From: an uncultured bacterium
Lineage (GTDB): Bacteria; Hydrothermota; UBA3073; NMUJ01; CBEVQO01
Reading direction: 5' to 3'
Assembly (NCBI GenBank): GCA_965552055.1
Contig: CBEVQO010000001.1
Span: 160,001-224,000, forward strand
Length of the DNA: 64,000 bases
Made by a program: the position numbers and the translations under genes. Of this stretch, positions 4,659 to 60,094 are shown in pieces. Below the pieces are notes generated by a model. That model searched no databases. It saw only the letters and a list, made by a program, of their open reading frames with translations, and was not told the origin of the DNA. The stretch's first letter is position 1, and each line of letters starts with the position of its first letter.

Positions 4659-4685
4659 ATTATAATTCCTTTCAATATTTGTCAA
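4659..4685 (-). promoter_or_regulatory. sigma70-type promoter TTGACA-N15-TATAAT for wzm; ATG 5 nt downstream
   Basis: Perfect consensus hexamers in a divergent intergenic region. Confidence 0.8.
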
Positions 4686-4695
4686 TAATTTTTGC

Positions 4696-4722
4696 TTGAC
4701 ATTTCTGAAGGATAGGTAAAAT
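4696..4722 (+). promoter_or_regulatory. sigma70-type promoter TTGACA-N15-TAAAAT for recA
   Basis: Hexamers read directly; GGAGG RBS follows. Confidence 0.75.
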
Positions 4723-4739
4723 AAGTAATAGGAGGGAAT

Positions 4740-5765
4740 ATGTCTGATAAAAGTGACAAAAAGAAGATATTGGAGGAAGCCAGGAAGCAAATTGAGAAGC
4801 GTTTTGGCACGGGTGCAATAATTCGTTTTGGAGAAAAAAAGGTGTCAGAGATTTCTCCTGAAGATGTTATTCCTACGGGTGCGCTGTCGCTTGATATCGC
4901 ACTGGGAGTAGGCGGCTATCCCAGAGGCAGAATTATTGAAATATACGGTGCTGAAGCAACAGGCAAAACGACCCTTGTTTTACATGCAATAGCAGAGGTG
5001 CAAAAAAGAGGAGGAACAGCTGTTTTTGTAGATACCGAACATGCTTTCGACCCTTCTTATGCAAAAAGTATAGGAGTAAATGTAGATGAACTTTATCTTT
5101 CACAGCCAGATTATGCTGAACAGGCTCTTGAAATCGCAGAAACCATGATAAGAAGCGGTGCTGTTGATTTGATAGCCGTTGATTCAGTTGCAGCACTCGT
5201 ACCCGAAGCAGAAGTAAAAGGCGAAATGGGAGAGTCACAAATAGGTTTGCAGGCAAGATTAATGTCTCATGCACTGAGAAAATTAACAGGAGCTCTTAAT
5301 AAATCAAGGACATGTGCGATTTTTACAAATCAAATAAGATATAAAATTCAAACATGGGGATATGGAGGTGAGCAAACCACGACACCGGGCGGACTCGCAC
5401 TTAAATTTTATGCTTCTGTAAGAATTGAATTGAAAAGAATAACATCAATAAAAGATACAAAAGAAGATAGAGTTATAGGCAACAGGATAAAAATGAAAAT
5501 CGTCAAAAATAAAGTAGCACCACCTTATAGGGAAGCAGAAGTTGATATAATTTTTGGTGAAGGATTTAATAAAATTGGTGATGTGCTTGACCTTGCAGAA
5601 AAAGAAAAAATAGTTGCAAAATCAGGAGCATGGTATTCCTATGGAACCACAAAATTGGGTCAGGGAAGGGCAAATGCAATTGAATATCTCAAAAAACACC
5701 AGGAAATTTTAAAAGAAATAGAGAATAAATTAAGAGAAAAATACGGTTTACCAAAAATAGAGTGA
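4740..5765 (+). CDS. recA: Recombinase A
   Basis: [51 protein letters not shown]. Confidence 0.99.
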
Positions 5766-6496
5766 TAAAACTCCGGGATGTAAAATTTTTAAGAAAAAAT
5801 TTTGAGTTAAAAGTAAATTTTGAGATTAAAAAAGGGGAATTTCTCGGAATAATAGGCCCCAATGGTAGCGGTAAAACGACGCTTTTACTCTTAATGTGTA
5901 ATATTTTGAAGCCAAATGACGGAGAGATTTTTTTATTCGATAAAAGAATAGAAGAATACAGCAGGCTGGAGATAGGCAGGAGAATTGCATTTTTACCACA
6001 GAGGATAGATTTTATATACGATTTTAAAGTGTTTGATACGATACTTATGGGGCGATATCCTCATTCTGTTTATTGTAATAAAAAGGAAGATTTTGAGATT
6101 GCAGAAAAAGCATTGAAAGATTGTGGGATTTATCACTTGAAAGATAGATATTTGAGTGAGTTATCAGGAGGCGAACTCCAGCTTACCCGCATTGCCCGTG
6201 CTTTGGCGCAATCAACCCAGATATTACTGCTGGATGAACCTGCACAAAATCTGGATATAAATCACATAATACAGATATTTGAATTGCTCAAAAAATTAAA
6301 TGAAGAAGGTCTAACCATAATCTGTACTTCCCATGAGATAAATATAACTTTAAACTATTTTAAGAGGATTATTTTACTTGATGAAGGTAAAATAGTTTAT
6401 GATGGTGAACCTTCTTCCGAAGATTTAGCGCGAAATTTGCGAAAAACTTTTAAAATAAAAGATGAATTCTCATGGGTGCTTGGAGTTTTCGCTTGA
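5762..6496 (+). CDS. ABC transporter ATPase, iron-siderophore/cobalamin (FepC-like) family
   Basis: [25 protein letters not shown]. Confidence 0.85.
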
Positions 6497-6519
6497 CAAA
6501 TTGCTTTTTTCTTTAAATT
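6493..6519 (+). promoter_or_regulatory. sigma70-type promoter TTGACA-N15-TAAATT for the R-M pair; ATG 6 nt downstream
   Basis: Hexamers read directly. Confidence 0.6.
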
Positions 6520-6525
6520 ATTTTG

Positions 6526-7182
6526 ATGGAAGATTTTAAGAAATTTTTACAAAATATTCCTGACATTTATTCAGCTCAATCTAAATTTTATCCAACTATA
6601 ATACAGGAATTTTTATACTATCTTTTTAAAGATTTACTTGAGGATTTAAACAAAAGGTATAATGAGGATTCGAAGTATGAAATAATGATAGGTGCTGATG
6701 TGGATGCTTATACTAATCTTTATTTTGCTCCGCGCAGTTTTGCTTCCTTCAAGAAAGAAGCCAATGTAAGAATTAATGTCAAAAATCAGGATTTCGCAAT
6801 TTACAGAGAGGCTATTATTTCGGTGGACGAAGAGGAAAGTAAAAAAGTTAAAATACCTGTAGTTTGTATTGAGTGTAAAACATATCTCGATAAAACTATG
6901 TTAGAAGGTTCAATAGCTACCGCTGAAAAAATAAAAAGTGGAAATCCTTATTGCCTTTTTGTAGTATTATGTGAAACTTATGAAGTTACATATAATGTTG
7001 ACCCGGCATATTCAAGAATAGACCAAATTTTTGTGATGAGAAAACAAAAGAGAAGGAGCGTCAATTTAAATGCAATTCAAAATGATGTTATTTTAAAACT
7101 TTTTATTTTCATAAAGGAACATCTCGAAAGAGACTGGTCAGAGGTCGAGCAAAAATTAACGAAAGAAGGCATAATAATATGA
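6526..7182 (+). CDS. Bpu10I-family type II restriction endonuclease (possibly shortened at the N-terminus)
   Basis: SAQSKF..I.EF, KNQDFAI, IECKTYLDKTM PD-(D/E)XK-type motif; next to a methyltransferase. Confidence 0.8.
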   Translation: MEDFKKFLQNIPDIYSAQSKFYPTIIQEFLYYLFKDLLEDLNKRYNEDSKYEIMIGADVDAYTNLYFAPRSFASFKKEANVRINVKNQDFAIYREAIISVDEEESKKVKIPVVCIECKTYLDKTMLEGSIATAEKIKSGNPYCLFVVLCETYEVTYNVDPAYSRIDQIFVMRKQKRRSVNLNAIQNDVILKLFIFIKEHLERDWSEVEQKLTKEGIII

Positions 7183-8075
7183 AGGAAGAAAAAATAAAGA
7201 ATAAAGGGATTAAAGAGAAAATTCGCAAGGGAACCAAATTTGAGAAGCGTACCATAAAAGTGGAAGAACCAGAGGAAATTCAAAAGTTTATAAATACAAT
7301 AATATGCGGAGATGCAGAAAGGGTACTAAAAGATATTCCGCCAAATTCCATCGATTTAATAGTAACATCCCCTCCTTATAATTTTGGTCAGCATTATGTG
7401 GGAGACCCCTTTAATGACACTATGGAATGGAATGCTTATTTCGAGAAGTTAATGAGAATCTGGAAAGAATGTTATCGAGTTTTAAAACCCGGTGGTAGAA
7501 TTTGTATAAATGTACAACCTTTATTTTCTGATTATATACCAACTCATCATATTATTTCAAATCAGTTGTTAAAAATAGGTTTTCTATGGAAAGCAGAGAT
7601 TTTGTGGGAAAAAAGTAATTATAATGCAAAATACACAGCATGGGGAAGCTGGAAATCTCCTTCTATGCCGTATCTTAAATACACATGGGAATTCATCGAA
7701 ATATTCGATAAAGAAACGCATAAAAAAGCAGGTGAGCCAGAAAATATTGATATTACTGAAGAAGAATTTAAACAATGGGTTTACGCTAAATGGGAATTCC
7801 CAGGTGAAACAAGGATGAAAAAATTTGGACATCCAGCTATGTTCCCAGAAGAACTACCTAAAAGATTGATAAAATTATTTTCCTATAGAGGCGATATAGT
7901 GCTTGACCCTTTCAATGGTGTGGGTACAACAACTTTAGTAGCATTTCGACTACAGAGAAGATTTATTGGAATCGATATATCCTATGAATATTGTGAAAAA
8001 GCAATTGAAAGAATAAAGAAAGAATTTAATATGTTCTCGACTAATATAAGATTAATAGATTACAGGAATAAATAA
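7179..8075 (+). CDS. Site-specific DNA amino-methyltransferase, beta class (SPPY, probably m4C)
   Basis: DLIVTSPPY precedes HPAMFP and VLDPFNGVGTT. Confidence 0.9.
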   Translation: MKEEKIKNKGIKEKIRKGTKFEKRTIKVEEPEEIQKFINTIICGDAERVLKDIPPNSIDLIVTSPPYNFGQHYVGDPFNDTMEWNAYFEKLMRIWKECYRVLKPGGRICINVQPLFSDYIPTHHIISNQLLKIGFLWKAEILWEKSNYNAKYTAWGSWKSPSMPYLKYTWEFIEIFDKETHKKAGEPENIDITEEEFKQWVYAKWEFPGETRMKKFGHPAMFPEELPKRLIKLFSYRGDIVLDPFNGVGTTTLVAFRLQRRFIGIDISYEYCEKAIERIKKEFNMFSTNIRLIDYRNK

Positions 8076-8076
8076 C

Positions 8077-10161
8077 TTGGTTGTAAAAGTAGCAGTTGAT
8101 ACAGGTGAATTCGTTTATAAAGTCCCTGACGAATTAAAGGGAATTATAAAAATTGGAAGTGTGGTAAAAGTTAAATTACGAAAAAAAGAAAAAATCGGCT
8201 TTGTAACAGAGATAAATCCAGAATACAAAAAGGGTATTATTTTGAAATATGTGGACGATGTTATAAAGGAATTCATGCCTTTGCCTGAGCGCCTTATAAA
8301 ATTCGCAAAATGGTGCGCAAATTATTATGCAGGTGAAACAGGAAAAATATTGAAATCCGCCATTCCAAAATTGATAAAAGAAAAACTAAATGTATATGTG
8401 AAACTTAAAGAACTTCCCCAAATAGAATCGGAAAAAGAGAAAATCCTCGCAAAATTGCTTTTAACAAGGATATTTGGTGTAAAATTGAAAGAAATAGAAG
8501 GGAAAGATAGGCGGAAAATATCTTCTTTACCAGTTGAATACATTGTAAAAAGAGAATATAAATTGCCAGAAGTTAAATTCAAAACAGAAGAAAAGCCACC
8601 ACAAAAATTAACGAGTTATCAGGAAAAAGCCCTTGAGAAAATTTTACCGCAAATAAAAAAGCACGCTTTTAAAGTTTTTTTGTTACACGGAGTTAACGGC
8701 AGTGGCAAGACCGAAGTTTATATGAGGGTGATTGAAGAAGTTTTGAAAATGGGTAAAACTGCGATTTTACTTACTCCTGAAATCTCTCTAACAACCCAGA
8801 TGCTACAGCGCTTCGAAGCACGCTTTGGCGAAAAAGTAGGAGTATGGCATTCAAGATTGTCCGATAGAGAAAGATTCGACATTTATCACGAAATAGTATC
8901 CGGTAAAAAGAGGATAATAATAGGTGCAAGGAGTGTTATTTTCCTTCCATTAAAAGCTGTAGGTGTTATAATTTGTGATGAAGAACATGATACTTCTTAT
9001 AAGCATGAAGAGAGTCCTCGTTATAACGCAAGGGTATCCGCTGTTATGCGTGCAAGGGCAGAGAAATGCGTTTGCATACTGGGAACAGCAACACCTTCAC
9101 TCGAAACATATCAAAATGCCTTAAAAGGTAAATTTGAATTAATAGAACTACCAGAAAGAGTAGATGGTGCACCATTGCCAGAGATAAAAATAATTGATAT
9201 GAGAAAAGAAGAAAACAAGATAATTTCTGATTATCTACGCGAGAAAATCATAGAAAAAGTTAAAAAAGGCGAAAAAATAATTTTGTTTTTAAATAGAAGA
9301 GGTTATGCAAATTATCTCTTATGTCGTGATTGTGGATATGTGCCGAGATGCCAAAAATGTGACATCTCTTTGACTTTGCATTTAAAAGACAAAGTTTTGC
9401 GATGCCATTATTGTGGATATAGACAGGAACTACCCGACACATGCCCAGAATGTGGGTCAGCAGAATTTATCTATGCAGGTGCTGGAACAGAAAGGGTAGA
9501 GGAAGAGATAAAAAAAATTTTACCAAAAGTAAAACTCGTAAGGATGGATTTGGATACCGTCACTTATAAAGATGCTTACTGGGATAAAATACACGCATTT
9601 GAAAGCGGAGCTCAAATTTTGCTCGGAACTCAAATGGTGGTGCATGGTTTACATTTTCCAAAAGTATCTCTATGTGCGATTATAAATATCGATAATCTTT
9701 TGACATTACCAGATTTCAGGGCTTATGAGCGTGTATTCCAGCTTGTGATGCAAACTGCAGGAAGAGCAGGAAGAGGAGGGATACCTGGTGAAGTGATATT
9801 ACAAACTTTTATGCCAGAACACCCTTTGATGAAATTTATAAGAAATTATGACTATAAAGGATTTTTCAAATGGGAGATAAAAAGAAGAAAAGAATTGAAT
9901 TATCCGCCTTTCACACATTTAATCAGGATAGTGGTTGAAAGAAGGAAGCGTGATTCAGCAAAAGAAGTTTGCGAGAAATTAAAAGAAGAACTTGAAGACA
10001 AAGCAGATGTAATAGGGTATTCTATATGCCCGATTGAGAAGAGGTCAAATCTTTACCGCTATCATCTATTGTTGAGAACAGAAAATCCACTAAAGATAAC
10101 ACCATTTTTAAAAAATTTAAAAGGAGTAAAAATAGATGTAGACCCAATTGATATTATGTAA
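8077..10161 (+). CDS. priA: Primosomal protein N'
   Basis: GVNGSGKTEVY, DEEHD, LNRRGY, four CxxC pairs, AGRAGR, DVDP. Confidence 0.97.
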   Translation: MVVKVAVDTGEFVYKVPDELKGIIKIGSVVKVKLRKKEKIGFVTEINPEYKKGIILKYVDDVIKEFMPLPERLIKFAKWCANYYAGETGKILKSAIPKLIKEKLNVYVKLKELPQIESEKEKILAKLLLTRIFGVKLKEIEGKDRRKISSLPVEYIVKREYKLPEVKFKTEEKPPQKLTSYQEKALEKILPQIKKHAFKVFLLHGVNGSGKTEVYMRVIEEVLKMGKTAILLTPEISLTTQMLQRFEARFGEKVGVWHSRLSDRERFDIYHEIVSGKKRIIIGARSVIFLPLKAVGVIICDEEHDTSYKHEESPRYNARVSAVMRARAEKCVCILGTATPSLETYQNALKGKFELIELPERVDGAPLPEIKIIDMRKEENKIISDYLREKIIEKVKKGEKIILFLNRRGYANYLLCRDCGYVPRCQKCDISLTLHLKDKVLRCHYCGYRQELPDTCPECGSAEFIYAGAGTERVEEEIKKILPKVKLVRMDLDTVTYKDAYWDKIHAFESGAQILLGTQMVVHGLHFPKVSLCAIINIDNLLTLPDFRAYERVFQLVMQTAGRAGRGGIPGEVILQTFMPEHPLMKFIRNYDYKGFFKWEIKRRKELNYPPFTHLIRIVVERRKRDSAKEVCEKLKEELEDKADVIGYSICPIEKRSNLYRYHLLLRTENPLKITPFLKNLKGVKIDVDPIDIM

Positions 10162-10474
10162 TTTACAATTATTAGCCCTTTACCCGTGATAAAATGAGGT
10201 TATCCCTAACCACTTGGGGTGTAGCGAAATGCCTATATGTAACAGGACTTCGAGAACATTAAAAATTTAACACAAAAATTAAAAATTTTTATTACCTTAA
10301 TTGCCTAACACATCTGCGATATAAAGGGTATTGCCACTGCTTCAGCGAGATTGCCAGGCAAATTTGAAATCACATCACATGACACCGCTGAAACAGCTTA
10401 CATAAATGTAGATTCAGATTTTACAGTTAGTTGGTCAACTCCAACCTATACAAATTTTTATTCAATTTATTTTT

Positions 10475-10747: not shown

Positions 10748-10751
10748 AATT

Positions 10752-11183
10752 TTAAACCCAGAATTGAGGCGGGAAACTTTTTCTTAATTTTTGTTCGCCT
10801 CTGAAACGCCGGATTCCTTCACCAACATCTTCTATTGCTATTTTCAAAGCAGACGCCAGTTTATCACTTATTATAACTTCACGCTCATGGCTCATTATGG
10901 TGCAGATGCATTTTACTTCTTCCGTCTCTTTATCTTCTGTTATGATTTTCACCCAAACGGCATCGGGAATTGAATAACAACTTAACACCTCTCCACCAGC
11001 GATTTCATATTTTTCAATACGAGCGTTTTCTATTAACTGTGGATTTATATCAAGTTTTTCCGCTACTTTAAGAGGAATTATTACCTCTGGAGCATCACTC
11101 CTGAAGCCTGAATTCACAAGAGCAATAGTTTCAATTTCCTTACCAGTTTGAGATTTAATCTTTATTTTTATGTTTACCGCCAT
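10752..11183 (-). CDS. Retropepsin-like (clan AA) protein with NSG in place of the catalytic D(T/S)G
   Basis: ETIALVNSGF...IPLKVAEKL...EVIISD pattern resembles archaeal-type aspartyl-protease-fold proteins. Confidence 0.6.
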   Translation of the reverse strand: MAVNIKIKIKSQTGKEIETIALVNSGFRSDAPEVIIPLKVAEKLDINPQLIENARIEKYEIAGGEVLSCYSIPDAVWVKIITEDKETEEVKCICTIMSHEREVIISDKLASALKIAIEDVGEGIRRFRGEQKLRKSFPPQFWV

Positions 11184-11250: not shown

Positions 11251-11255
11251 CTTTA

Positions 11256-11282
11256 ATTTTATTGAAAAGAGAAAAATGTCAA
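11256..11282 (-). promoter_or_regulatory. sigma70-type promoter TTGACA-N15-TAAAAT
   Basis: Hexamers read directly. Confidence 0.7.
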
Positions 11283-11284
11283 GC

Positions 11285-11848: not shown

Positions 11849-11875
11849 TTGACTTTCGAATAATCTCGCTATAAT
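11849..11875 (+). promoter_or_regulatory. sigma70-type promoter TTGACT-N15-TATAAT for guaD; GTG 4 nt downstream
   Basis: Hexamers read directly; no SD before the start. Confidence 0.75.
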
Positions 11876-11879
11876 TTTT

Positions 11880-13496: not shown

Positions 13497-13514
13497 TAAT
13501 TTTTCAATTTTCCC

Positions 13515-13541
13515 TTGACCTTTGGACTTCATGGTTATAAT
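13515..13541 (+). promoter_or_regulatory. sigma70-type promoter TTGACC-N15-TATAAT for the PerR-like gene; ATG 5 nt downstream
   Basis: Hexamers read directly. Confidence 0.75.
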
Positions 13542-13965: not shown

Positions 13966-13992
13966 TTGACAATTTACAATTATGGTTATAAT
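13966..13992 (+). promoter_or_regulatory. sigma70-type promoter TTGACA-N15-TATAAT for the oxidative-stress operon, overlapped by a candidate operator
   Basis: Perfect hexamers; AGGAGG RBS downstream. Confidence 0.8.
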
Positions 13993-24881: not shown

Positions 24882-24908
24882 TAAATATTCATTTTTTGAA
24901 TTTGTCAA
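24882..24908 (-). promoter_or_regulatory. Candidate internal tuf promoter TTGACA-N15-TATTTA
   Basis: Perfect -35 in the fusA-tuf gap; -10 imperfect. Confidence 0.5.
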
Positions 24909-28152: not shown

Positions 28153-28542
28153 TTATTCTTTCTTCTGTTCTTTTGGTCTTTTGGTTCCGTATTTCGAGCG
28201 AGATGTCCTTCTTCCTTCCACTCCTGCGCAATCATACGCTCCCCTTACGATATGGTATTTCACACCCGGTAAATCTTTAACTCTACCTCCCCTCACCAGT
28301 ACAACAGAGTGCTCCTGCAGATTATGACCCTCACCCGGAATATACGCTATTACCTCCCTGCCCGTACTCAACCTTACTTTCGCAACCTTTCTTTGCGCAG
28401 AATTCGGCTTTTTAGGCGTAGTAGTATAAACTTTTACGCAAACTCCCCTCTTCTGAGGACAGCCCTCAAGTGCCGGGGATTTCGACTTCCTTTTCTTCTT
28501 TTTTCTCCCCTTCCTTATCAACTGATTTATCGTGGGCGGCAT
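28153..28542 (-). CDS. rpsL: 30S ribosomal protein S12
   Basis: [32 protein letters not shown]. Confidence 0.98.
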
Positions 28543-39428: not shown

Positions 39429-39455
39429 TTTATATCCAAAATGCTAATTTGTCAA
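39429..39455 (-). promoter_or_regulatory. Candidate promoter TTGACA-N15-TATAAA(T) for the tRNA/ribosomal superoperon
   Basis: Immediately upstream of the first tRNA. Confidence 0.65.
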
Positions 39456-39508
39456 GCTAAAATTTTAAAAATTTTTAATTGACAAAAATGAATTTAAGGA
39501 TATTAATT

Positions 39509-39911: not shown

Positions 39912-39938
39912 TTGACATATCCATACTTTCATTATCTT
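39912..39938 (+). promoter_or_regulatory. sigma70-type promoter TTGACA-N15-TATCTT for murA; GTG 5 nt downstream
   Basis: Hexamers read directly; the GTG gives a typical MurA N-terminus. Confidence 0.7.
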
Positions 39939-49800: not shown

Positions 49801-52800
49801 ATTGTGTATTCCCCATCAGGATATTGTAATTTGAAGGAATAAGGCAACAAATCAGTGGTAAGTGCATGAGTTATGCCATTTATCTTGTAGTATGTTGTAT
49901 CAACTCCGCTTTTATCATCCCATGCGGAAATTGTTATTTGAGTCGTAGAGTCTATATAAGGTGGTGAGCCGTAATTTGGTGTGCCAATGGATATCTCCGT
50001 AACAGGTGGAACAGTATCTTCTATTATTTCAATTGAGAATGCAATTGTTTGATAATTTTCTGCATAATCCCTGGCTGTAATGTGGCACATGTAAATCCCT
50101 GCTGGTAAAACCTTTCCAGAAAAATCTTTACCATCCCAGATTTCGGTATAGCTGCCTTCTTTTAGATCAAAATAAGATTTATGATAAACACCTGCTCCTA
50201 TCGGGTTCTCAATCATAATTTCTACAATTTTACATGATTCGGATAAAGTGAAATGGATATAGGTTTCTTCTCCTGTTGAAGGCATAAAAGTAGTGGGTTC
50301 TGCATAAGCAGTTATTTGAGGAGGCACCCTATCCACCAGCCAGTAGCCTGTCACTTCATTTGACTTATTGCCGAGAGAATCAATTAAGAATGATATGAAT
50401 CGATAGTAACCATCGGGTAACAACCTTCCAGCATCATCGTATTTTTCCCACACGAAACAAATTGTGTCAGCCTTAAATACCTTTTTCTTAGTAAATTTAT
50501 CTGTTACCTGATAATAAAGCATTCCTGCAGTAAAAGAGAATATTCGTAATGTCTCCTCATAAGTTTTGTTCACAATTAACAGAGTTTTTTCTGCTTCTAA
50601 TTTAGGCACTGATAATTTCCTCCATCCTACAGGTGCATTCTTTATTGCTGGTTCTGTTGGCTCTGGTGGTTCCGGTGGCTCCTCTGGTGGCTCTTCACGA
50701 GGTTCTTGCCAGCCTGCTATTGCAGAGATTGATGAAGATGAAGTCATTATTTTCTTCTTTAAGTTCTCAAAAGCTTCTAATTTTGTAACAAAGATTACTA
50801 TTTCTCCTGGCTTCACTTTTATCAAATGACTGAATTTACCTTCTGCATCGGTAGCCACTCGATAAATACCGATTAATTCGCTTTCGTCATTTATATCAAA
50901 TTTTCGTGCAGATAATGTTAAAGTAGAAGTGGGATTATAATTAGCAACAACTTCTCTTGCAACTTCATATATGTTCCTAAGAGGATTTGTAACTGCGATA
51001 ATAAGAGAATCCAATGGTTTAGCGTGTCCTTTAATTTTTGCTGTGGTATCGTTTATAGTAATGAAAGAGTCAATAACAGGCTTCACTGTTTCCGTTTCTG
51101 TGTAATATAAAGGTGCAAATACTGGGAAATCACCACCTGGAAAGGAGTCAAGCGCTGCTTCTATTGTAAGAATTCCATCCGCTTCAGGCTGACAGGGAAA
51201 TGTTGTTAAATCAACTATATCTCCAGAAGGTGAGATACCATATAATTTCAACTTTGAAGTATCTATGTTGCATTTTTCAATATCCCGGGGCGTATAATGG
51301 AATTTTAAAGTTGGTCTTTTTGTAGTATCGAACTTAGCACCTGCTGGCTGCATCAATAACACAGGTCCATAGTTGCCCGTTATTATGGGAGTGCCATACC
51401 CTAACCCAGCATCTTCTATTAGAACAGGTGAAATTTTAGCAATCGTATCAGTTGGGAACGCTCCTTCTTTAAAAATTATCTCTGCTCTACAATAAGGAGA
51501 GTGCGCCTCCGATACATTATCATGTGAGATAAAATCACCTACATAAATGTCTTTGTAATAAACTTTCACAGGAGTTTTCGAACTTTTGCTTTCAAACAAT
51601 TTAAGCATTAATCTGTATTTTCCATAAGCGTGTATTGAGTTCCAGTAGCAAAGTGTTTGGAAGCCTCCAACAGGTGTTTTCCTTTTTGTCAACTGATAGA
51701 GATTCTTTCCGTCATATGCCCATAATTCGTAATAATGACCTTCAGGGTCTCCCTGAATTTCTATAAATGCTTTTGGCAAACTATCTAAATTAAGAGTATG
51801 AACAGGAATAAAGGAATCTAAGGCACTGTAACCAAATAAAGAATCGTGATAGCTGATAACAAGTGTATCGAGGTCATAATTATTTTGGTCGTTAATGTAT
51901 TTTAGATTAATATTCCAGTTTGTGATTTTGAGGTAAGGGTTTGAGTTATTATCCCAAAAAGTAGCGGTATAATCGTTCTGCTGGGCAACAACCTCTGCCG
52001 TTGCATTAAATTCAATCGGATTTATTACTTTACATGTTGATATTATGCCACTCTTAGAAAGGAAATTAACAGAAGTGGTTAGTTTAACACCTCCTGTAAT
52101 TAAAGAAACTGCCATCCAATTGACATATGCGCCAATTTCTTTTGCGACGATTTTATCGCCTACTTTTAATTTGCAGATACATTTAGTGACATCATAATCT
52201 GGAGGTACATTGACATTCCAACTAGTAAATCCAAATGTGGATTTTTCCGTTAAATAAAGTTCCTTTTGAGTAGAAAAGGTATCCGTTACATACAAAGTAC
52301 AAAGTCTTGGACGACCATCAATACCGGGATCTTCTTCCTCTATAATCATTTTTTGAGCAACAAAACTTGCTTCAAATGTAACTTTCCTTTTAAGAGAGTT
52401 AGAGTACCAGTCTATGAAACCAACCTGTTCACCTTTCCCATAAGGCTTAAATTCGTCTTTTGTAAATATGATGGGCATAGAGAATATTTTTCCCTGTTTA
52501 AGGTTTGTATCCATAGTTGTTTGCCATGCTAAAGTTTCAGCCACTACTCGTATAGAGTCCTCCCAAGGTGGAATTAATCTCACATTTTCTCCTGCTATTA
52601 AATGTGGTGTTTGGTATCCACCAATTTGCACTACTTTTGGATTGACAGGAAATAGCTCATCGTAAGATATAATGTCCGTATAATAAACGGTATCAGAATG
52701 TAATTTTATTAATAAGGTATCAAAAATTGACTTGAGGTCATTCGAAGGCACACTAATAATTTTGCCACTTTGAATGCGTGAATAAAGAGTACTATAAGTA

Positions 52801-55800
52801 AAAAACTTAAAAGTCACTCCTCCAATAGATATACTGTCGTAACATCCACCGCTGGAAATTTTTGAAGAATCTTTAAATTCGACTTTGTAGCTTATATTTT
52901 GTATTTCTACACTATCCAAAGTATCCCCAAAACTAATCGTCCAAATTAGAGTGTCATTAAAAATTCCTATTCTATTAACGAAAGATTTTGTTGAATAAAG
53001 TGTCGCGTCTAGATAAATGGCATAGACAGTTCGATAACTTCCGGTGCCCAAAAACCAAGTAGTAACATCATCACTGCCTTTAGCTTTAACTAAGTACCAG
53101 TTACCGTTACTGCAATGTTGCCAATACGCATAATCTCTTTCCAATAAAATACTAATACTGCTAGGTCCGCCTGAATAGGGATTATTCACGACAGCCCATG
53201 TTGGGTCGCCAGCCCAATAAAAGTCAGGAGTGGCGAATATCGGAAAATCTTCATAATCTTCCACCTTCGCCTGTATTGTGACGCTAACCAAAGGTTTACC
53301 TCCTTTACCGATTGCGGTATCAACCAATGTATAAGGTTGAGGCGGGCAATACTCCCCCTCTGCACTTGCTTCAAATTTAAATTCTGCAAGTTCTTTATAA
53401 ACAGTATCTCCCAAAACTCCTACTTTATATCTATCTGGTATCACAATATTTCCATAAACTACAGAAAATGCGCCTGTATCTGCTTTAAATGTTTCACTTC
53501 TCGTGGTATCATAATCTTTCCCATCCAGTGAAGTCGCCTTTATCACAAAATAATATTCTCCTGTATCTGCTCCCGTGCCCTCCCATGTGTAATATGTTTG
53601 CCAGTTGCCCGCTGCAAAAAGATTTGTAACCAGAGTTTTTAAATATGCATCTTCATGATATAGATCAATTTGAACATTCGCATCTCTGTTTACTTTGAAA
53701 CTCAAAGTCACAAGTCTCTGCACGCTATCTTCATGGAAAGGATAAAAGACATCGGGACTAACATTGACATCCGTGATTTCAAATTTTGTCTTTACATTCA
53801 CAAATGCACTATCAATTGCTATGCCTTTGTAATCCTCTGCAATCGCCATCAATAGCACTTTATACCTGTCACTGCCTACATCTTCGCCTTCATTATTCTT
53901 TCCAAACCATAACACTTCTTTTATAGTATCTCCAAGGTCTATGACACACGGATTCTGGCACAATAAAGTATCTTTTCCAAGCCACAATCTATCTGTAAGT
54001 ACATCATTTTCATAAAAGGCAAATTCAAGTCTTCTGCTTTCTGACTTAAATGACAAATATTTTGTCCCGGTGTCCGCCATATAAATCATTCCAATTAATG
54101 AATCTTCGTAATTTTGGATAAAGAAATCAGTTGGATAAACTGTAAAGCCAGGTTCACTTTGCGCTCTTATGATGCACTTAGCAACCGTTACTCCATTTTC
54201 GTTCCTGAAAGCAATCTTCCATGTATCTTCTATCATATAAAGATAAAAGCCATGATGCAGTATGGCAGGCACACCTTTATATGGATAAATCACTCCGAGA
54301 TCTATATCATTAATATTTTTGCCATTCTCATCAAGGATATTTATTCTAATATGGGAAACTTTACCCTGAACCAGATAATTGATTTTCAATGTATCTCTTT
54401 CTCCCTGAATATTTAATGTGTCATCTTCTCCTGTTAATTGTGTTAAAAGTGTAACCTTAGGCAAAACACCTGTAAACGGCTTAACATAAACTGTCTCAAT
54501 ATCACAAAGATAATTTCCATTTTTCTCATAACTTATTAGTTTCAATTCACAGGTGTTATCTGCAAGTCCAGATACATCCCAGTATGCCAACATGTCAGGA
54601 GTTTCTACCTGTTTTATTCCAATATTTGCAGAATCACCTCGAAGCTCCGGTAATACTTCAATTCCTGTTTTTTGCCATATTCCTCCAGTTGTTCTCCACC
54701 ATATTTCAAATCTGTCAAATCCAGATGTGTTTCGCATATCAGGGTCAGATGCCCTCCCGAATATTGCTACTCTTACAGCCTCTACTGTATCTTTTGGATA
54801 AACGATTTCTGCACCAAATGTGCGTTTCAAAACCTGATCTTGCTTCCAGCTTACATTGCCCCATTTGTCCTTTAAAACAAGTTTAACATTATGGCAGCCG
54901 TTTGGTAAAGGAGTTAAATCTATTAATGCCTTGCCAGAAACTACGGAGCTACCAGGCTTAACTACAGTATCAAGTTGCAACAAAGTATCCACATAAATTT
55001 TAAGCGTACAAATACCTCTATTTTGTGCGATGTCTTTTCTTTCGGATACTTTGAAATAAACTTCCGCTGTGTCATTTATCGGAATAAGTGGCAATACATA
55101 AAGGTCAATTATTTCTGGTGCTGTTCTATCCACTCGCAATGTCTCTCCACCGAGGGGTTCTGGTACAATCGCTTCATTACCTGCTTTATCCCGTGCTATT
55201 ATCTCTGCTTTATAAAGACCATCGGGTAAATATTCGCCAAACCAATTTTTACCCCAATATATGATGTTTGTATCTTCTTTTTCACCTGTGTAATATCTCT
55301 TCTCGGTATAACCACTGACATAATCTGTAAAAGTAACTTCCATCTCTGTCCATTCATCTGTTAAGTATTTCATTATAATTGCAGTATCTTTTGATGTGAA
55401 AATAAGTGGCGTAAATGTTTGTGTAATCTCTATTTGCGGAGGCTTTGTATCAACTATGAAATAACCAGTATCACTCGAAACATTCCCTGCCTTATCCTTT
55501 ACAAATACTTTTACGATGTATTTGCCACCAGAAAGAGTATCCACATACCCGTATCTTCTTATACTTTCAAAATAGCAGAATTTAATAGTGTCGTGCACAA
55601 CTGTATCTCTCAATGAGTCATAAACCTCGAACCATACTGATTTTGGTACAAATAACATGTTTTCGAGGTTATCGGATGGTTTAAATATTATATTTAATGC
55701 AGGATGTGCTTTCCATGACCATAAAGTGGAATCGGGCTGATAAACTTCTACAACAGGAGGTGTGGTATCCCTATAGAAAAACCAATCATATTTTTCAGAA

Positions 55801-58757
55801 TTTTTGACACGCACTTTGTCAACGAGTTTTGCAAGAATTATGTATCTGCCTTCAGGGAGAGGTAAGTAAATTGTGTCAATTATAAAATCAGTTGCCAGAG
55901 GTTCATAGTCTCCATCGGTTTCTATAGTTTCGATTTTCATTTTATAAAAAGGAAAACTAACTTCGATCATATTTGTATCTTTACCGCATATAAAGATGGT
56001 ATCTGTATCCGGGGTTATAACCCAGAGAGAGCAACATTTCACACCTGACCTGTCAACTCCTTTAAATTTGATTTTGACGGTATCTTTGTTTGTAGCGAAA
56101 TTAGGCTTAGGTTCTATAATCACAATTTCAGGAGGTTCGAAATCCGGAATTCCAGGTGAAATTGACGCTATTCCTTCACCCCAATGCCTTCTTCGCTCAC
56201 ATATTTTCTTAAAACCACTATTGGTTTTTACTCCAAAATACGTCCACTGATCGTTTTCTTTTATCCTAATTTCTCCATCTTCTTCAGGTTTAAATACATT
56301 GGATTTCAATAAATTCGCAATAGAATCTCGTACTTCTCGCGCTTCCAGATCGTAAGGGGACAATCCTCCCACTCCATCACCACAAATGCCTATCAAAACG
56401 GTATCACCTACGGATAATGATTTTAGGTAATTGTATAAACGGTCGGCTTCTATTTTTCCTGAATCGGGGAATTGAGGATTATAATAAGTTCTAAATCTTT
56501 CGGTATCTACAGGTATTCCATTTCTTATGACGACTACCCAGATGCCAGGTTTATCTTCAAAGTTTATCACATTTCCAGCTGCAAGGAACTTTATGTAGTT
56601 TCCATCTTTGCTTCCTGCTGATTCTATTGCATTTAAATACCCTCGACCTGCAGCTAAAATCGGTCTTTTAACTTGATATTCTCTCGGGAAGCGCCAAGAT
56701 TGACCTATTGCGTGATCGGGAACAAAGCTATTATAAGTATTATATAAAGTATCCATATGGATTCTGCATCCTTTGATCCCTTTTATTTTTACGCTTTCTA
56801 TACCTTTAACCAAAAAAGGTTCAAATGAAGTGGTGTAAAATTTAGAACCATTGCAGTCTAACTGTAAATGAAAACCATAAAAATTGGTATCCAATGGGAA
56901 AGGTATGGTATAACTTTTTCTACCTTTTTCAATTAGGCTTTTTAAACCCATTTCTTTTAAATTACAGGTTATTGTTGTCTCCTTAACTATGGGTTTATTA
57001 AAATAATTTAAATACGGATCATCTCCTATTATTTTAATTTTTAAAGTTAACTTTTTATCAAAATTATAGGTAGGAGATAGCAGAAATACTTTCACACTAC
57101 AGGGAGCTCCTTGAAAGAAGAATGAATCAGGAAAAAACCACTTTACTTGTTGCACTAATAATTCATAAGGTTGAGAGGAAAAATCTCCGCATTCGCTCAA
57201 ACTATGTATAACGGCGTTCGTCCTCGTAATATTTAATGTCTTGTCCCATAATTCTTTCATTGTATTACAAAAATCTAAGTTTCCGTCCCCGTTAAGGAAA
57301 TTAAATATTTTTTTATTACAAAGAAGAAGCATTTTTTTAAGTACTTCAAAATTCCAGTGCGTGAAAGGTTCCTTTGACTCCCAAAATTCCGATGCAAATG
57401 TATAGTTTTTTAACAATCTTTCTTTCATTATGCAGTATTCTATATTTGTTCTTAACTCATAAGGCATTTGAGCTTCTAAGGGAGGGGCTTCTGCTGCTTC
57501 ATCGTACAAAGGTTCTGTGAAATTAAGCCATTCATTGGATAACAACAAATTTGCATATACGATAGCATCCATATCACTTTTAATTGGAAGCGAACATACT
57601 TTTTTTATGTGTTTAATGGTGAAATATATCCACCTTGTTGTTATTTCTGCTTCCATTTTATTTTCTTCCCAGTTCGCATAAACTCTGCAATCAGCAGGCA
57701 ATAAATAAAACCATACAGGTATTACCGCTAATAAAAAGCGTGAACCGCCATCTCTTCTCTTTGCAAAATAAGAATAAATCATCCTATATATCAACGCTCT
57801 TAAATATTTTTTATTTGATGTCAATATATCTCCGATTTTACAATTTGCAATTACTATTTTAGCAAGAGTTTTTATTAAACCTTCTTTCCAATTATTTGGT
57901 TTGCTCTTTTCTATTTCTTTTCCTATGTTTTCTTTAACCATAACTTCAAACAATTCTGAAAAATCATCTAAACTTTTATATGCTCGCGAATATTTAACAA
58001 ATAAAAAGAATTCTTCATAGCTCTTTCTAATCTCATCAGCAGGTATACTTGAGTCTATTGAGTGAATAAAATTTGCTAAATCGAAATGCACTATCAAAGG
58101 AGGGACTTCAAATAATAAACCTCCGTCGTTCCGCACAATCATTCTAAAAATATGGGCTGCATCTAAAATAATCCTTGCGGATGGTAATAGATACAGTGGC
58201 GGTAAAGGAGCGAATTTATCAAGGAATGCCTCTACGAACCATTCTAATTGTTTAAACCTTTCTTTTTCAATGTGAGGAAACCCGATATCGCCTACCTTTA
58301 AGTATTTACACAAAAATGGCAAAAGAATATTATCAATGTGAAAATCCATAAGGAAATGATTTAAGTATCCCAAAGCAAAGCAAACTTTTTCTATTGAAGG
58401 ATCATTTTTATAAGTTATAAAATCTTCATAAGCCTTTTCAAGTAATTGAACAGCGAATTCTGGGCTATGTAAAGATATCAGCGAAGGGTTCACTGAACGA
58501 ACATCTGGTGCGATGCATCCTGCTATAAAGGCGTTTCTGAATCTTAAATATCGCATATATTTATGAGTATCGCTAACACTGGGAATCACAATAGGAGGTT
58601 TTTCTCCTAAATCTACTCCGAACTGTCCCTCTATTTGATTCTTTAAACTATCCCATATTACAAAACCCATCCTTCCATGAGTTATTGGACCATATCCTAA
58701 AAGTGTATTTGCAAGTATTATTAAAATACCCACAGCTATTACTTTATCCCCCTTCAT
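46845..58757 (-). CDS. 3970-aa secreted multidomain protein: Zn-phospholipase-C-like head, ILEI/GG-like domain, many Ig-like/FlgD repeats, NHL propeller, YPNPF C-terminal sorting-like domain
   Basis: Signal peptide; YGPITH/GCIAPD/GYLNHFLMD; IESAG...GIWVVVI; repeated D.TPP and D..GN; VADRNN; YPNPFNP...WDGRN...NGVY. Confidence 0.85.
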   Translation of the reverse strand: MKGDKVIAVGILIILANTLLGYGPITHGRMGFVIWDSLKNQIEGQFGVDLGEKPPIVIPSVSDTHKYMRYLRFRNAFIAGCIAPDVRSVNPSLISLHSPEFAVQLLEKAYEDFITYKNDPSIEKVCFALGYLNHFLMDFHIDNILLPFLCKYLKVGDIGFPHIEKERFKQLEWFVEAFLDKFAPLPPLYLLPSARIILDAAHIFRMIVRNDGGLLFEVPPLIVHFDLANFIHSIDSSIPADEIRKSYEEFFLFVKYSRAYKSLDDFSELFEVMVKENIGKEIEKSKPNNWKEGLIKTLAKIVIANCKIGDILTSNKKYLRALIYRMIYSYFAKRRDGGSRFLLAVIPVWFYLLPADCRVYANWEENKMEAEITTRWIYFTIKHIKKVCSLPIKSDMDAIVYANLLLSNEWLNFTEPLYDEAAEAPPLEAQMPYELRTNIEYCIMKERLLKNYTFASEFWESKEPFTHWNFEVLKKMLLLCNKKIFNFLNGDGNLDFCNTMKELWDKTLNITRTNAVIHSLSECGDFSSQPYELLVQQVKWFFPDSFFFQGAPCSVKVFLLSPTYNFDKKLTLKIKIIGDDPYLNYFNKPIVKETTITCNLKEMGLKSLIEKGRKSYTIPFPLDTNFYGFHLQLDCNGSKFYTTSFEPFLVKGIESVKIKGIKGCRIHMDTLYNTYNSFVPDHAIGQSWRFPREYQVKRPILAAGRGYLNAIESAGSKDGNYIKFLAAGNVINFEDKPGIWVVVIRNGIPVDTERFRTYYNPQFPDSGKIEADRLYNYLKSLSVGDTVLIGICGDGVGGLSPYDLEAREVRDSIANLLKSNVFKPEEDGEIRIKENDQWTYFGVKTNSGFKKICERRRHWGEGIASISPGIPDFEPPEIVIIEPKPNFATNKDTVKIKFKGVDRSGVKCCSLWVITPDTDTIFICGKDTNMIEVSFPFYKMKIETIETDGDYEPLATDFIIDTIYLPLPEGRYIILAKLVDKVRVKNSEKYDWFFYRDTTPPVVEVYQPDSTLWSWKAHPALNIIFKPSDNLENMLFVPKSVWFEVYDSLRDTVVHDTIKFCYFESIRRYGYVDTLSGGKYIVKVFVKDKAGNVSSDTGYFIVDTKPPQIEITQTFTPLIFTSKDTAIIMKYLTDEWTEMEVTFTDYVSGYTEKRYYTGEKEDTNIIYWGKNWFGEYLPDGLYKAEIIARDKAGNEAIVPEPLGGETLRVDRTAPEIIDLYVLPLIPINDTAEVYFKVSERKDIAQNRGICTLKIYVDTLLQLDTVVKPGSSVVSGKALIDLTPLPNGCHNVKLVLKDKWGNVSWKQDQVLKRTFGAEIVYPKDTVEAVRVAIFGRASDPDMRNTSGFDRFEIWWRTTGGIWQKTGIEVLPELRGDSANIGIKQVETPDMLAYWDVSGLADNTCELKLISYEKNGNYLCDIETVYVKPFTGVLPKVTLLTQLTGEDDTLNIQGERDTLKINYLVQGKVSHIRINILDENGKNINDIDLGVIYPYKGVPAILHHGFYLYMIEDTWKIAFRNENGVTVAKCIIRAQSEPGFTVYPTDFFIQNYEDSLIGMIYMADTGTKYLSFKSESRRLEFAFYENDVLTDRLWLGKDTLLCQNPCVIDLGDTIKEVLWFGKNNEGEDVGSDRYKVLLMAIAEDYKGIAIDSAFVNVKTKFEITDVNVSPDVFYPFHEDSVQRLVTLSFKVNRDANVQIDLYHEDAYLKTLVTNLFAAGNWQTYYTWEGTGADTGEYYFVIKATSLDGKDYDTTRSETFKADTGAFSVVYGNIVIPDRYKVGVLGDTVYKELAEFKFEASAEGEYCPPQPYTLVDTAIGKGGKPLVSVTIQAKVEDYEDFPIFATPDFYWAGDPTWAVVNNPYSGGPSSISILLERDYAYWQHCSNGNWYLVKAKGSDDVTTWFLGTGSYRTVYAIYLDATLYSTKSFVNRIGIFNDTLIWTISFGDTLDSVEIQNISYKVEFKDSSKISSGGCYDSISIGGVTFKFFTYSTLYSRIQSGKIISVPSNDLKSIFDTLLIKLHSDTVYYTDIISYDELFPVNPKVVQIGGYQTPHLIAGENVRLIPPWEDSIRVVAETLAWQTTMDTNLKQGKIFSMPIIFTKDEFKPYGKGEQVGFIDWYSNSLKRKVTFEASFVAQKMIIEEEDPGIDGRPRLCTLYVTDTFSTQKELYLTEKSTFGFTSWNVNVPPDYDVTKCICKLKVGDKIVAKEIGAYVNWMAVSLITGGVKLTTSVNFLSKSGIISTCKVINPIEFNATAEVVAQQNDYTATFWDNNSNPYLKITNWNINLKYINDQNNYDLDTLVISYHDSLFGYSALDSFIPVHTLNLDSLPKAFIEIQGDPEGHYYELWAYDGKNLYQLTKRKTPVGGFQTLCYWNSIHAYGKYRLMLKLFESKSSKTPVKVYYKDIYVGDFISHDNVSEAHSPYCRAEIIFKEGAFPTDTIAKISPVLIEDAGLGYGTPIITGNYGPVLLMQPAGAKFDTTKRPTLKFHYTPRDIEKCNIDTSKLKLYGISPSGDIVDLTTFPCQPEADGILTIEAALDSFPGGDFPVFAPLYYTETETVKPVIDSFITINDTTAKIKGHAKPLDSLIIAVTNPLRNIYEVAREVVANYNPTSTLTLSARKFDINDESELIGIYRVATDAEGKFSHLIKVKPGEIVIFVTKLEAFENLKKKIMTSSSSISAIAGWQEPREEPPEEPPEPPEPTEPAIKNAPVGWRKLSVPKLEAEKTLLIVNKTYEETLRIFSFTAGMLYYQVTDKFTKKKVFKADTICFVWEKYDDAGRLLPDGYYRFISFLIDSLGNKSNEVTGYWLVDRVPPQITAYAEPTTFMPSTGEETYIHFTLSESCKIVEIMIENPIGAGVYHKSYFDLKEGSYTEIWDGKDFSGKVLPAGIYMCHITARDYAENYQTIAFSIEIIEDTVPPVTEISIGTPNYGSPPYIDSTTQITISAWDDKSGVDTTYYKINGITHALTTDLLPYSFKLQYPDGEYTIYYNSVDRAKNREDIKSQIVRIDNTSPVAQITITLPKYVSDKMWITSQTDIIMKAEDLIINGIASGVKEINYEVYYNTTKIDADSTFSDSIVYNIIARKDGKYSIICWTFDNLGHRSLTIDTIVYLDNTPPSSHLTFEPPTILIDGKRFVTSNSLIMIFSIDEGCGVKSRYYNFAGYWVEGGEFTLPSDGVYNVKYYAVDNLGNTEPQKCETIYVDNTPPQTQITFGEPKYQDEEGKLWLTSSTKITLKAEDPVISYASSGVKEIHYMINGLENVISGDSVAFTITGEDGEYTIEYWAIDNIGNEEGHKIITVYLDNTPPVSQLTIGEPKYSDNPMYITSHTDLTLTITDEGCGVDTGYWWCDASQKRIYVAETTFTLAEWGEGLHTLYYYGVDKLGNREPTKEKLLAVDDTKPVSELITGTPSYSYGDSTIITSHTDFTLRAEDPLSAGVASGVQKIVYRVDSMPWQEIPDTHFVFTLEDWGLQGQDGMHTISHYAIDNVENKEDVKSHEFILDDTPPECFIISPTESCMVNQNVPVYGRVRDVHFGWWKLEYGEGISPSDWITISEGKKQMIDTILGWFNAKDLSDGIYVLRLTAQDVVLNTSEFRRIIFRCEPQFDLAITGLHKPEGVHILPDGNSWIYVADRNNKRIAYFDYWGNFVGEITGLHHPNAVRFNGEIIYTTLWWGHTHLTVLGFDLSGNEVYSATGLNHPKGINFYGDYIVVAERNWDRLTFLDDSANIVFTIPAHKCEGIGVDSPYIFTCLVCSGKVVKYYVNLFDTAFRVMEIENFDYPADVEISRHKNIWICERNADRIVMCDRFGNRLLIFGEFGKEPGRFNKPCGISLCYEGDVVKEIYVADRNNDRVQRFKLPEFGAVKMPISIFTVDEPLNVEVASYPNPFNPLRNTAKIAVKVNKPAEVKVKIYTLAGNLIWSEEIPVLSGRLDITWDGRNFAGDIVLNGVYICKVIAKTEEESAESIWKIAVIK
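50650..50710 (-). repeat. Low-complexity Pro/Glu linker (EPREEPPEEPPEPPEPTEPA)
   Basis: Short imperfect ggctctggt-type repeats. Confidence 0.7.
55219..56107. repeat. 889-bp direct repeat, copy 1 (no mismatch seen versus 60231..61119)
   Basis: Constant offset of 5012; the ORF track shows identical peptides at 55419 and 60431. Confidence 0.9.
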
Positions 58758-58758
58758 T

Positions 58759-60062
58759 TTAACCTCCTATTTTGCATATTTTTTTCTTAAAAAATTTTTC
58801 TCCTCTTTTTACTACCAAAAAATATATTCCTTTAGATAATCCCGAAAAGTCTATTTGAAAATTCTGCCTGCCTGTGCCTATCAGGCGAAGTATTCTCTTT
58901 ATCCTCAATCTCCCCATTACATCATAAACCCTTACATCAACATCTTCGTCTCCAATAGCTATTAATTGCAGATTTATAAAACCTCTGCATGGATTGGGAT
59001 AGACAACAAAATGCTCCCTGCACGCCTGAACATCCCAAACTATCCTGCCAAATATCCTGCTACTTTGCCAATCAGATGAAATTCTGCGTGTATAAACGAT
59101 CAAAAATTGACCTTGAGAACCGCTTATTTGATATCCATAACGGATAGGAATTTCTATTTCGGCTATTCTTGTGCCTGTTTCGTCTATTATTACGGCATGT
59201 CCTGACCAGATTATCATATAATTATTTCCGTTAAATGCGCAGGGAGGCGATAAGCCTATCTCGTCAGTTAATAAAATTTTAGTAATAAAATTACCCTCAT
59301 TTGAATAAATTTTAGCTACTATTGACTGTGCAAGAGTGGCGTAAGATACACAAAAAGTGTTATTTCCTTTTACACTATACTCCCCTTTCATCGTCCCTTC
59401 GGAAATGCTCGGATCATCAGCTATCGCAAATGACTTTATTTTTTCCAATTGTTCGTTTAACTCAATTCCGTAAAGATTTGACTCATAATATCCTTCGATC
59501 CCATAAACTATAAAATACCTTTCATTGACACATACAATGGCAGGCCCACACAAAATGTACCCTGTCCTCACAAGCACTTTTGGCTCTCCGAGGACTTTGC
59601 CTTCAGGCGATACCTTCACTACTCTCAACTCATCACCTGACCCCCTCTTGCAAATCCAGCAAACAACAAAATTTTCACCATCGAAAGTACAAGCTGCTGG
59701 ACCTATTGTGGTATCTATTATAGTTTCATTTGATAATTTTTTACCTTCGGATGTAAACCATAACCCCATTGTTTTATGTTTTTTTGCAATGACGACCAAG
59801 AATAAAGAATCCCCATAACAAACTGCATAAAGTCCTCCTGTATCAACAGAAATCGGTTCCATATCTAATAATACGCCTTGAGGCGTTACTCTTGCTCCTT
59901 TTATGTAAGCTCCATTTTCTGTCCACAATACAAAATAAATTCCATCTCCATATGCTACTTTTGGACCAGTTTGAAGATTTTCACTCAACCCAATTCTAAA
60001 CTCGTCCCCCACTATTATTTTTGCTGTATCAGTGAAGAAAATTAGTGCTAAAACTACCCCAT
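58759..60062 (-). CDS. Beta-rich repeat protein with a YPNP C-terminal sorting-like domain; probable true start at ATG 60062 is out of frame by 1 nt (longest open frame starts at 60012)
   Basis: Repeats of P.VA....YFV.W / GEN(F/Y).V.W; VYPNP...VYDVMGR...LSKGIYF. Confidence 0.75.
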
Positions 60063-60067
60063 CGTAA

Positions 60068-60094
60068 ATTTTAATCCAATTATCGGAGTGTCAA
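60068..60094 (-). promoter_or_regulatory. sigma70-type promoter TTGACA-N15-TAAAAT; ATG 5 nt downstream
   Basis: Hexamers read directly; lies at the truncation point of the 1247-aa ORF. Confidence 0.75.

Follow-up and report, generated by a model that had tools for sequence, protein, structure and literature searches.

A 15-nucleotide spacer as the promoter rule of one WOR-3 order, and its possible basis in the RNA polymerase holoenzyme

Introduction

The distance between the -35 and -10 hexamers of promoters is usually taken as a constant of bacterial transcription. The window considered here, by which we mean the whole 64,000-nucleotide stretch of DNA that was analysed, raises the question of whether this constant can be set differently in a bacterial lineage. 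An initial annotation of the window had reported nine promoters with exactly 15 nt between their hexamers and had read them as a sign of a lineage-wide rule and of a changed holoenzyme geometry. We asked (i) whether the 15-nt spacing is the rule of the genome, (ii) how it is distributed across the phylum, and (iii) which part of the transcription machinery may be responsible for it.

In the available text of the ProFinder preprint (2026, 10.64898/2026.09.23.753901) the canonical spacer is concluded to hold domain-wide: each of the 49 TSS-mapped genomes has a median of 17, 99.2% fall within 16-18, and in 0 of 67 phyla is 17 used significantly less than an equal-use baseline. The catalogue is based on the 49-genome panel; the predictor has a gate that admits only spacers of 16-18 bp and is therefore blind to the order described below. 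For E. coli, the parts of the publications available to us report 17 as the optimum in a promoter library (Kuo et al., PMC12641261), 15-bp spacers as functional but below 17 (Klein et al., PMC8695583), and 16-bp spacers as about 20% of an early E. coli/phage promoter set (PMC2613000). A literature search that had most subscription journals outside its reach turned up no account of a housekeeping promoter rule with 15-nt spacers and no match for WOR-3 combined with promoter and sigma factor.

Materials and methods

The genome containing the window (G000; 2.23 Mb, 97% complete) belongs to the phylum WOR-3, as judged from the source names of its nearest sigma proteins. Its open reading frames (ORFs; 1924) were obtained with a simple caller of our own, and the upstream regions of the 674 operon-leading ORFs were scanned for promoters with generic hexamer weights that had been set by hand and without a prior on the spacer. 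The motif TTGACA-N-TAWWAT was counted at spacers of 15, 16, 17 and 18 nt in 161 WOR-3 genomes; for 111 further genomes the count at 15 only was taken. RpoD residues are given in E. coli numbers, which were set by the offset from R451.

Results and discussion

Promoters in the window

All nine promoters were recovered with the coordinates, hexamers and 15-nt spacer that had been described for them (Table 1), and the promoters of tuf and of the tRNA-Thr cluster have, as claimed, TA in the 15 register (TATTTA and TATAAA). The site at 39479, which had been singled out as fitting 16 rather than 15, does fit 16, albeit imperfectly, its -10 box being TATTAA. The statement that no TANNNT is present at 17 stood for all the sites except guaD (11849), where such a box overlaps the TATAAT at 15. 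The 15-nt spacing is commoner in the window than chance would give: TTGAC[ATC] is followed by TANNNT 10 times at a spacer of 15, never at 16, 4 times at 17 and 0-6 times at the other spacers.

Table 1. Promoters, the minority-class site and the genes of the large core subunits in the window.
Feature	Position	Strand	Remarks
KpsM/Wzm-like ABC permease promoter	4659..4685	-	TTGACA-15-TATAAT; ATG 5 nt past the -10 box
recA promoter	4696..4722	+	TTGACA-15-TAAAAT; leadered, SD-like sequence downstream
Bpu10I-family endonuclease gene promoter	6493..6519	+	TTGACA-15-TAAATT; ATG 6 nt past the -10 box
Promoter, downstream ORF 10752-11183	11256..11282	-	TTGACA-15-TAAAAT; ATG 5 nt past the -10 box
guaD promoter	11849..11875	+	TTGACT-15-TATAAT; TANNNT at 17 too
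PerR/Fur-like gene promoter	13515..13541	+	TTGACC-15-TATAAT; ATG 5 nt past the -10 box
DUF438-hemerythrin-PAS operon promoter	13966..13992	+	TTGACA-15-TATAAT
tuf promoter	24882..24908	-	TTGACA-15-TATTTA; without the -7 T
rpoC	28466-32500	-	Core subunit, checked as candidate carrier of the spacer shift
rpoB	32481-36086	-	Core subunit, checked as candidate carrier of the spacer shift
tRNA-Thr cluster promoter	39429..39455	-	TTGACA-15-TATAAA; 12 nt upstream of the tRNA
Minority-class site	39479..39506	+	TTGACA-16-TATTAA
murA promoter	39912..39938	+	TTGACA-15-TATCTT; in-frame GTG 5 nt past the -10 box
Promoter before T9SS-sorted protein genes	60068..60094	-	TTGACA-15-TAAAAT; overlaps the end of ORF 60080-63823

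The names given to the downstream genes fared unevenly: recA, guaD and murA scored above the NCBIfam cut-offs, the PerR-like gene and the KpsM/Wzm-like permease below theirs. Family matches made two further names more specific, the REase belonging to the Bpu10I family and the gene of the "redox" operon being of the DUF438-hemerythrin-PAS type, and the family search gave no match for the ORF behind the promoter at 11256..11282. Positions 46845-60012 (minus strand) of the window encode a protein of 3970 aa that combines OmpL47-type barrels with a PorU-like C-terminus, and the preceding gene carries a T9SS type A sorting domain.

The spacer across the genome

The 1818 TTGACA sites of G000 are followed by TANNNT at spacers of 14, 15, 16, 17 and 18 nt in 45, 416, 93, 106 and 48 cases, respectively, and by TATAAT in 7, 121, 27, 7 and 4 cases. 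The genome-wide histogram has the sharp peak at 15 that had been predicted from the window, and no peak at 17. TTGACA with TANNNT at 15 was found at 342 of the 645 sites close to gene starts and at 74 of the 1173 elsewhere. The promoter scan made an assignment for 388 of the 674 operon-leading ORFs, with a spacer of 15 in 287, 16 in 46, 17 in 10 and 18 in 8 of them; shuffled upstream regions subjected to the same scan gave 32 assignments with a flat spread over the spacers.

These promoter-type sites are oriented and precede housekeeping genes and the first genes of operons, and their -10 boxes, mostly TAAAAT (132), TATAAT (121) and TAAATT (38) at spacer 15, have T-12, A-11 and T-7. The -35 box is near invariant: among its 18 single-base variants only TTGACT was clearly enriched at 15 (30 versus a background of 2.4). 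The spacers contain phased A- and T-rich positions, and since their composition is the same at the TAWWAT (275) and TAWWTT (73) sites we treat both as one promoter class. A division into two promoter classes was considered for G000 and dropped, the shared spacer composition giving it no support; a search for a second motif in the 260 upstream regions without a 15-type site found none.

A small shoulder at 17 (the 106 of 1818 TTGACA sites given above) would be expected if the register had been misread and the true -10 box lay at 17. However, the position that would open a 17-register box is A in 54% and T in 46% of cases, start codons would sit merely 3 nt behind such a box, and 49 of the 81 TAWWWT sites at 17 also match TANNNT at 15. 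Behind the 15-register box, the first in-frame ATG or GTG (n = 348 sites) is found at 5 nt in 83 cases, at 6 nt in 38, at 2 nt in 23, at 8 nt in 15, at 7 nt in 14 and at 3 nt in 10, which is the pattern of leaderless transcripts. The start-codon mode is also 5 nt (17 of 52) in G034, a relative with 16-nt spacers, so that only the gap between the -35 and -10 boxes changes. TTGAC is present within 75 nt of 26 of the 46 tRNA genes, 22 of these 26 have TA in the 15 register, and in 19 of the 22 the distance from the box to the mature 5' end is 5-9 nt. As proxies, the leaderless starts and the tRNA ends, which follow at about 5-9 nt, support the 15-register box as the true -10 box and are consistent with a transcription start about 5-7 nt after it. 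An artefact is further contradicted by the occurrence of the 15-nt peak in four separate assemblies. We consider it highly improbable that the register was misread, or that the motif is the site of a regulator or a product of assembly.

Leaderless transcripts appear to be heavily used in G000, where 276 of the 1924 ORFs have a full promoter immediately before the start codon. The tRNA leaders of this genome are very short.

Distribution across WOR-3

The counts of TTGACA-N-TAWWAT at 15/16/17/18 nt were 275/55/40/16 in G000. Family f2, comprising the three other genomes of its order, likewise peaks at 15, with a -10 box of the TAWWTT type; TAWWWT occurs at 15/16/17 in 62/18/6, 48/14/5 and 39/10/3 cases in these three genomes. 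The other WOR-3 families have a modal spacer of 16, 17 or 17-18. A sharp peak at 17 is found in f4 (G009, 5/13/284/13) and sharp peaks at 16 in f17 and f24 (G034, 6/248/24/18; G074, 3/263/31/46), where 16 exceeds 17 by about 9:1, and G088 of f29 peaks at 18 (3/9/36/52). The 16-nt mode extends over much of the phylum, including f17, f24, f27, f34, f37, f9, f10, f13, f15 and others.

Among the 272 genomes of the phylum (at least 50% complete) the highest counts at 15 were those of G000 and f2 (348, 62, 48 and 39), followed by G004 with 34 at 15 but 78 at 16; in the 111 added genomes the count at 15 was at most 18 throughout. The 15-nt peak is restricted to one WOR-3 order among these 272 genomes. 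As it is limited to G000 and f2 while the other families have spacers of 16-18, it represents one order's rule in a phylum of varying optimum. The rule postulated from the window was borne out in that the peak is genome-wide and common to the whole order, and it is a real departure from a supposed constant, a sigma70-like housekeeping promoter that fails the spacer rule of its own family.

DNA topology

Two base pairs of B-DNA correspond to about 7 Å and about 70 degrees, which have to be absorbed at a 15-nt optimum. One way in which this could happen is through the DNA itself: if it were relaxed or positively supercoiled, owing to the presence of reverse gyrase and the lack of an active gyrase, the spacer would be overwound and a normal holoenzyme would then prefer a shorter one. 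Reverse gyrase was found in G000, G001 and G002, and the only GyrA of G000 is without the GyrA-box and scores below the gyrA cut-off, a combination which we take to be Aquifex-like. Against this, the GyrA-box is intact in G001 and G002, which still peak at 15. Genomes with reverse gyrase in f12, f25, f29, f33 and f20 have their peak at 17 or higher, no reverse gyrase match was found in the strong-16 families f17, f24 and f27, and f28 combines reverse gyrase with a degenerate box but has no 15-nt peak. Physiological changes in topology amount, by our own estimate, to about 10-30 degrees and not to 70. Spacer length is also described as having a minor effect on supercoiling sensitivity in the available text of PMC8695583. 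Given the intact GyrA-box of G001 and G002 and the frequency of reverse gyrase in 17-nt families, topology is unlikely to be the main cause, and we give this explanation, which the initial annotation had offered as the alternative to a changed holoenzyme, a low probability: the spacer tracks neither reverse gyrase nor the GyrA-box. Topology could contribute in G000.

The genes for GyrA and reverse gyrase of G000 lie outside the window (G000:C1:27269-29566 and G000:C4:82901-86113). An altered GyrA-box was seen in the f28 genomes and in G064 (f19).

Core subunits and accessory factors

According to the available text of PMC2613000, how far apart sigma regions 2 and 4 lie in the holoenzyme fixes the spacer optimum, in part through the beta flap. 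The core comparison took in the whole of RpoB, together with RpoC up to residue ~620, from about 40 genomes picked by hand. No indel specific to the 15-nt genomes was found among these ~40 genomes in the beta flap, the beta' zipper, the Zn-binding domain, the lid, the clamp helices or the dock, and the order-specific substitutions are five conservative ones (one in RpoC and four in RpoB, with one at the flap base). A core indel that was considered as the cause, a shortened insertion after the flap, was rejected since it is also present in f3, f5, f6 and f7, which peak at 16-17. The spacing of FliA-type and sigma54 motifs, which was used as a core-versus-sigma test, showed no clear peak and was uninformative on this point.

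The ordinary appearance of the core subunits would agree with an order-specific accessory factor that attaches to the polymerase or to the spacer and, by bending the DNA, lets an ordinary holoenzyme accommodate 15 bp, much like MerR in reverse. The phased A- and T-rich positions in the spacers of G000 would suit such a factor, as would the circumstance that two different sigmas may read one spacing within one order. The spacers of G001, however, contain little conserved sequence, and no stand-alone CarD was found, PF02559 matching once in each of 154 of the 161 genomes and the matches listed lying in frames of Mfd size. We regard an accessory factor of this kind as unlikely.

In f2, rpoB and rpoC are on separate contigs and the genes after rpoB are unrelated. 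An rpoB-rpoC fusion is suggested in G024 (C37, around 7138-8754), where the RpoB match lies inside a 2612-aa open frame.

RpoD and the spacer TG

The sigma factors of G000 are RpoD (575 aa, C7), a short sigma of 272 aa (C5), a FliA-like sigma and two ECF-size sigmas; rpoD is located behind dnaG, and the short sigma gene in a run of htrA, sigma and M23 peptidase genes. G000 RpoD keeps the melting and -35 residues (Y430, W433, W434, Q437, R451, H455 and the region 4.2 helix) and has the substitutions S428G, A438Q, T440M, R441K, V454P and E458N. The check for indels in the region 3-4 linker that the initial annotation had suggested gave only three one-residue indels in RpoD, whose clearer changes are substitutions in regions 2.4-3.0. 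Beyond these indels and the conservative core substitutions, no structural change able to move sigma domain 4 was identified.

RpoD of G000 departs from 17% of the phylum-conserved columns (median 2.3%), compared with 5.9% for RpoB (3.5%) and 5.0% for RpoC (3.3%). It has a long branch (0.77) in the sigma tree, it fell, as the one WOR-3 RpoD that was scored, below the cut-off of TIGR02393 (284.8 versus 354), and no relatives between 54% and 100% identity were found. The RpoDs of f15 and f32 depart even more (18-32%), yet these families peak at 16. In f15 and f32 (L059-L061, L065) regions 2.4-3.0 of RpoD are independently degenerate and R451 is lost, with a conserved short sigma beside it; these are possible further handovers from RpoD to the short sigma.

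A preference for a short spacer is within the reach of an RpoD holoenzyme, since f9 and f31 have a single sigma match each and peak at 16. E458 and R441 contact the -14 pair of the extended -10 element according to the available text of PMC4593229 and PMC2613000. In a survey of 61 RpoDs, which were hand-picked to span the spacer classes and come from related families so that the counts are not independent, E458 is kept in 28 of 28 RpoDs from genomes with 17 above 15 and 16, whereas the 23 RpoDs without it all come from 16- or 15-peaked genomes. The loss of E458 is not required for a short spacer, since it is still present in 10 of the 33 genomes that have their peak below 17, all 10 of them 16-peaked. 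The TG of the spacer is at -15/-14 in 18 of 40 sites and at -16/-15 in 0 of 40 in f4 (17-nt), at -16/-15 in 17 of 52 and at -15/-14 in 1 of 52 in G034 (16-nt), and in G000 at -16/-15 in 105 of 348 and at the canonical -15/-14 in 15 of 348. G000 therefore departs from the canonical extended -10 arrangement, in which TG at -15/-14 is read by E458 and R441, and has N and K at these residues. No preference for a spacer TG was found in G001 (f2), and in G014, which keeps E458, inspection by eye found TG at -16/-15 in 0 of the 28 listed 16-nt sites.

Ribosomal protein S14 of G000 (101 aa; L007:1366-1671, minus strand, C2) contains, at residues 20-57, an insert whose match to sigma70 region 3 exceeds the Pfam cut-off (E 1.2e-11) and whose sequence is similar to region 3 of the RpoD of the same genome.

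Family f2 and the reader of the 15-nt promoters

No RpoD was found in the three f2 genomes (99, 87 and 66% complete), either behind dnaG or elsewhere (L089, L090, L111, L112, L191-L193), and the only sigmas matched in all three were the short Bacteroidota-type sigma and ECF-size sigmas. In G001 and G002 a gene other than rpoD follows dnaG. The short sigmas of G000 and f2 group together (81/76 support), with the Bacteroidota sigmas in the same clade. The gene order htrA, short sigma, M23-like peptidase is common to G000 (L005) and G001 (L109).

These data raise the possibility that the short sigma serves as housekeeping factor throughout the order and that the 15-nt ruler resides in it, RpoD decaying in G000 and being already lost in f2. 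A single change would then account for both families, in a parallel with Bacteroidota, and the grouping of the short sigmas, the want of any other group 1/2 sigma among those found in f2 (3 of 3 genomes), and the long branch and low TIGR02393 score of the G000 RpoD would all fit. The fast evolution of RpoD in G000 agrees equally well with decay. On the other hand, the promoters of G000 (TAWAAT, displaced TG) are unlike those of f2 (TAWWTT, no TG), only 8 of 62 sites being TAWWAT in G001 with its short sigma alone, and the G000 RpoD retains its melting and -35 residues as well as its position behind dnaG. The short sigma is, moreover, present in most of the phylum, including 16- and 17-nt families, yet no further genome among the 272 peaks at 15. 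We consider the short sigma a possible but rather doubtful carrier of the ruler.

For the dominant motif of G000, TTGACA-15 nt-TAWAAT, we see roughly even chances that it is read by a holoenzyme with a shortened ruler and with the diverged RpoD as its reader. RpoD is favoured because the -10 box and the spacer signature resemble those of RpoD lineages and not those of f2, and judged from the sequences it is the more likely reader in G000, at close to even probability, than the short sigma. As f2 peaks at 15 without RpoD, the changes in the G000 RpoD cannot explain the whole order, and the use of another sigma at the same spacing in f2 points either to a shared cause in the core or in an accessory factor, or to parallel tuning to an already re-spaced genome.

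A changed holoenzyme geometry, as proposed initially from the window, is the best remaining explanation, and it is one that we infer. Sigma domain 4 is predicted to be held about two base pairs nearer to domain 2 than in other bacteria, a shift that would be built into the proteins. The spacer would have gone from 17 to 16 to 15 within WOR-3, and the shift may have been accompanied by sigma 2.4/3.0 losing its extended -10 contacts (N at the E458 and K at the R441 equivalent) and by a heavier reliance on the almost invariant -35 box. We rate at about one in two the more general proposition that the -35/-10 ruler is an evolvable trait at the level of lineages, which in WOR-3 ranges from 17-18 to 16 and, in a single order, to 15, with hundreds of promoters re-spaced jointly there, and that a remodelled RpoD in one family and an RpoD-replacing short sigma of the Bacteroidota type in the other share this 15-bp geometry by means of a holoenzyme arrangement new to known structures.

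The presence of 15-, 16- and 17-nt lineages in one phylum provides a natural series for testing which part sets the ruler (sigma 2.4/3.0, the sigma 4-flap contact or the core), and makes it testable in what way the spacing of hundreds of promoters changes jointly in a genome. If there is a holoenzyme adapted to 15 bp, it could, speculatively, define a class of promoters that is orthogonal in part, and foreign DNA entering the cell might be less well expressed.

Comparison with known promoter systems

With the canonical sigma70/sigmaA system (TTGACA-17+/-1-TATAAT) the G000 promoters share both hexamers, an A/T-rich tract upstream of the -35 box and the position at operon and tRNA starts, together with an RpoD that has the melting and -35 residues; going by the proxies, transcription would also begin some 5-7 nt behind the -10 box. 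They differ in that the modal spacer is 15 in place of the canonical 16-18 with its optimum at 17, a spacing almost unused in G000 (10 of 388), in the near invariance of the -35 box and in the TG at -16/-15 instead of -15/-14. The promoters with 16-bp spacers in the early E. coli/phage set and in the 16-nt WOR-3 families are similar in that a spacer below 17 is read by a sigma70 holoenzyme, and 16 is the genome-wide mode in f17 and f24; short-spacer promoters of E. coli are individual and weaker, whereas 15 is the rule of the genome in G000.

Promoters of the Bacteroidota primary sigma have the elements TTTG and TAnnTTTG; this sigma and its promoters were reportedly described by Vingadassalom in 2005. 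The order resembles that system in the short sigma, which falls in its clade, and in f2, which seems to rely on the short sigma alone and has a -10 box of the TAnnTT type. In f2 no group 1/2 sigma besides the short one was found, whereas G000 retains RpoD and a TAWAAT -10 box. The -35 box remains TTGACA in both families and the TTTG tail is absent, the motifs being TTGACA/TAWAAT in G000 and TTGACA/TAWWTT without a TTG tail in G001.
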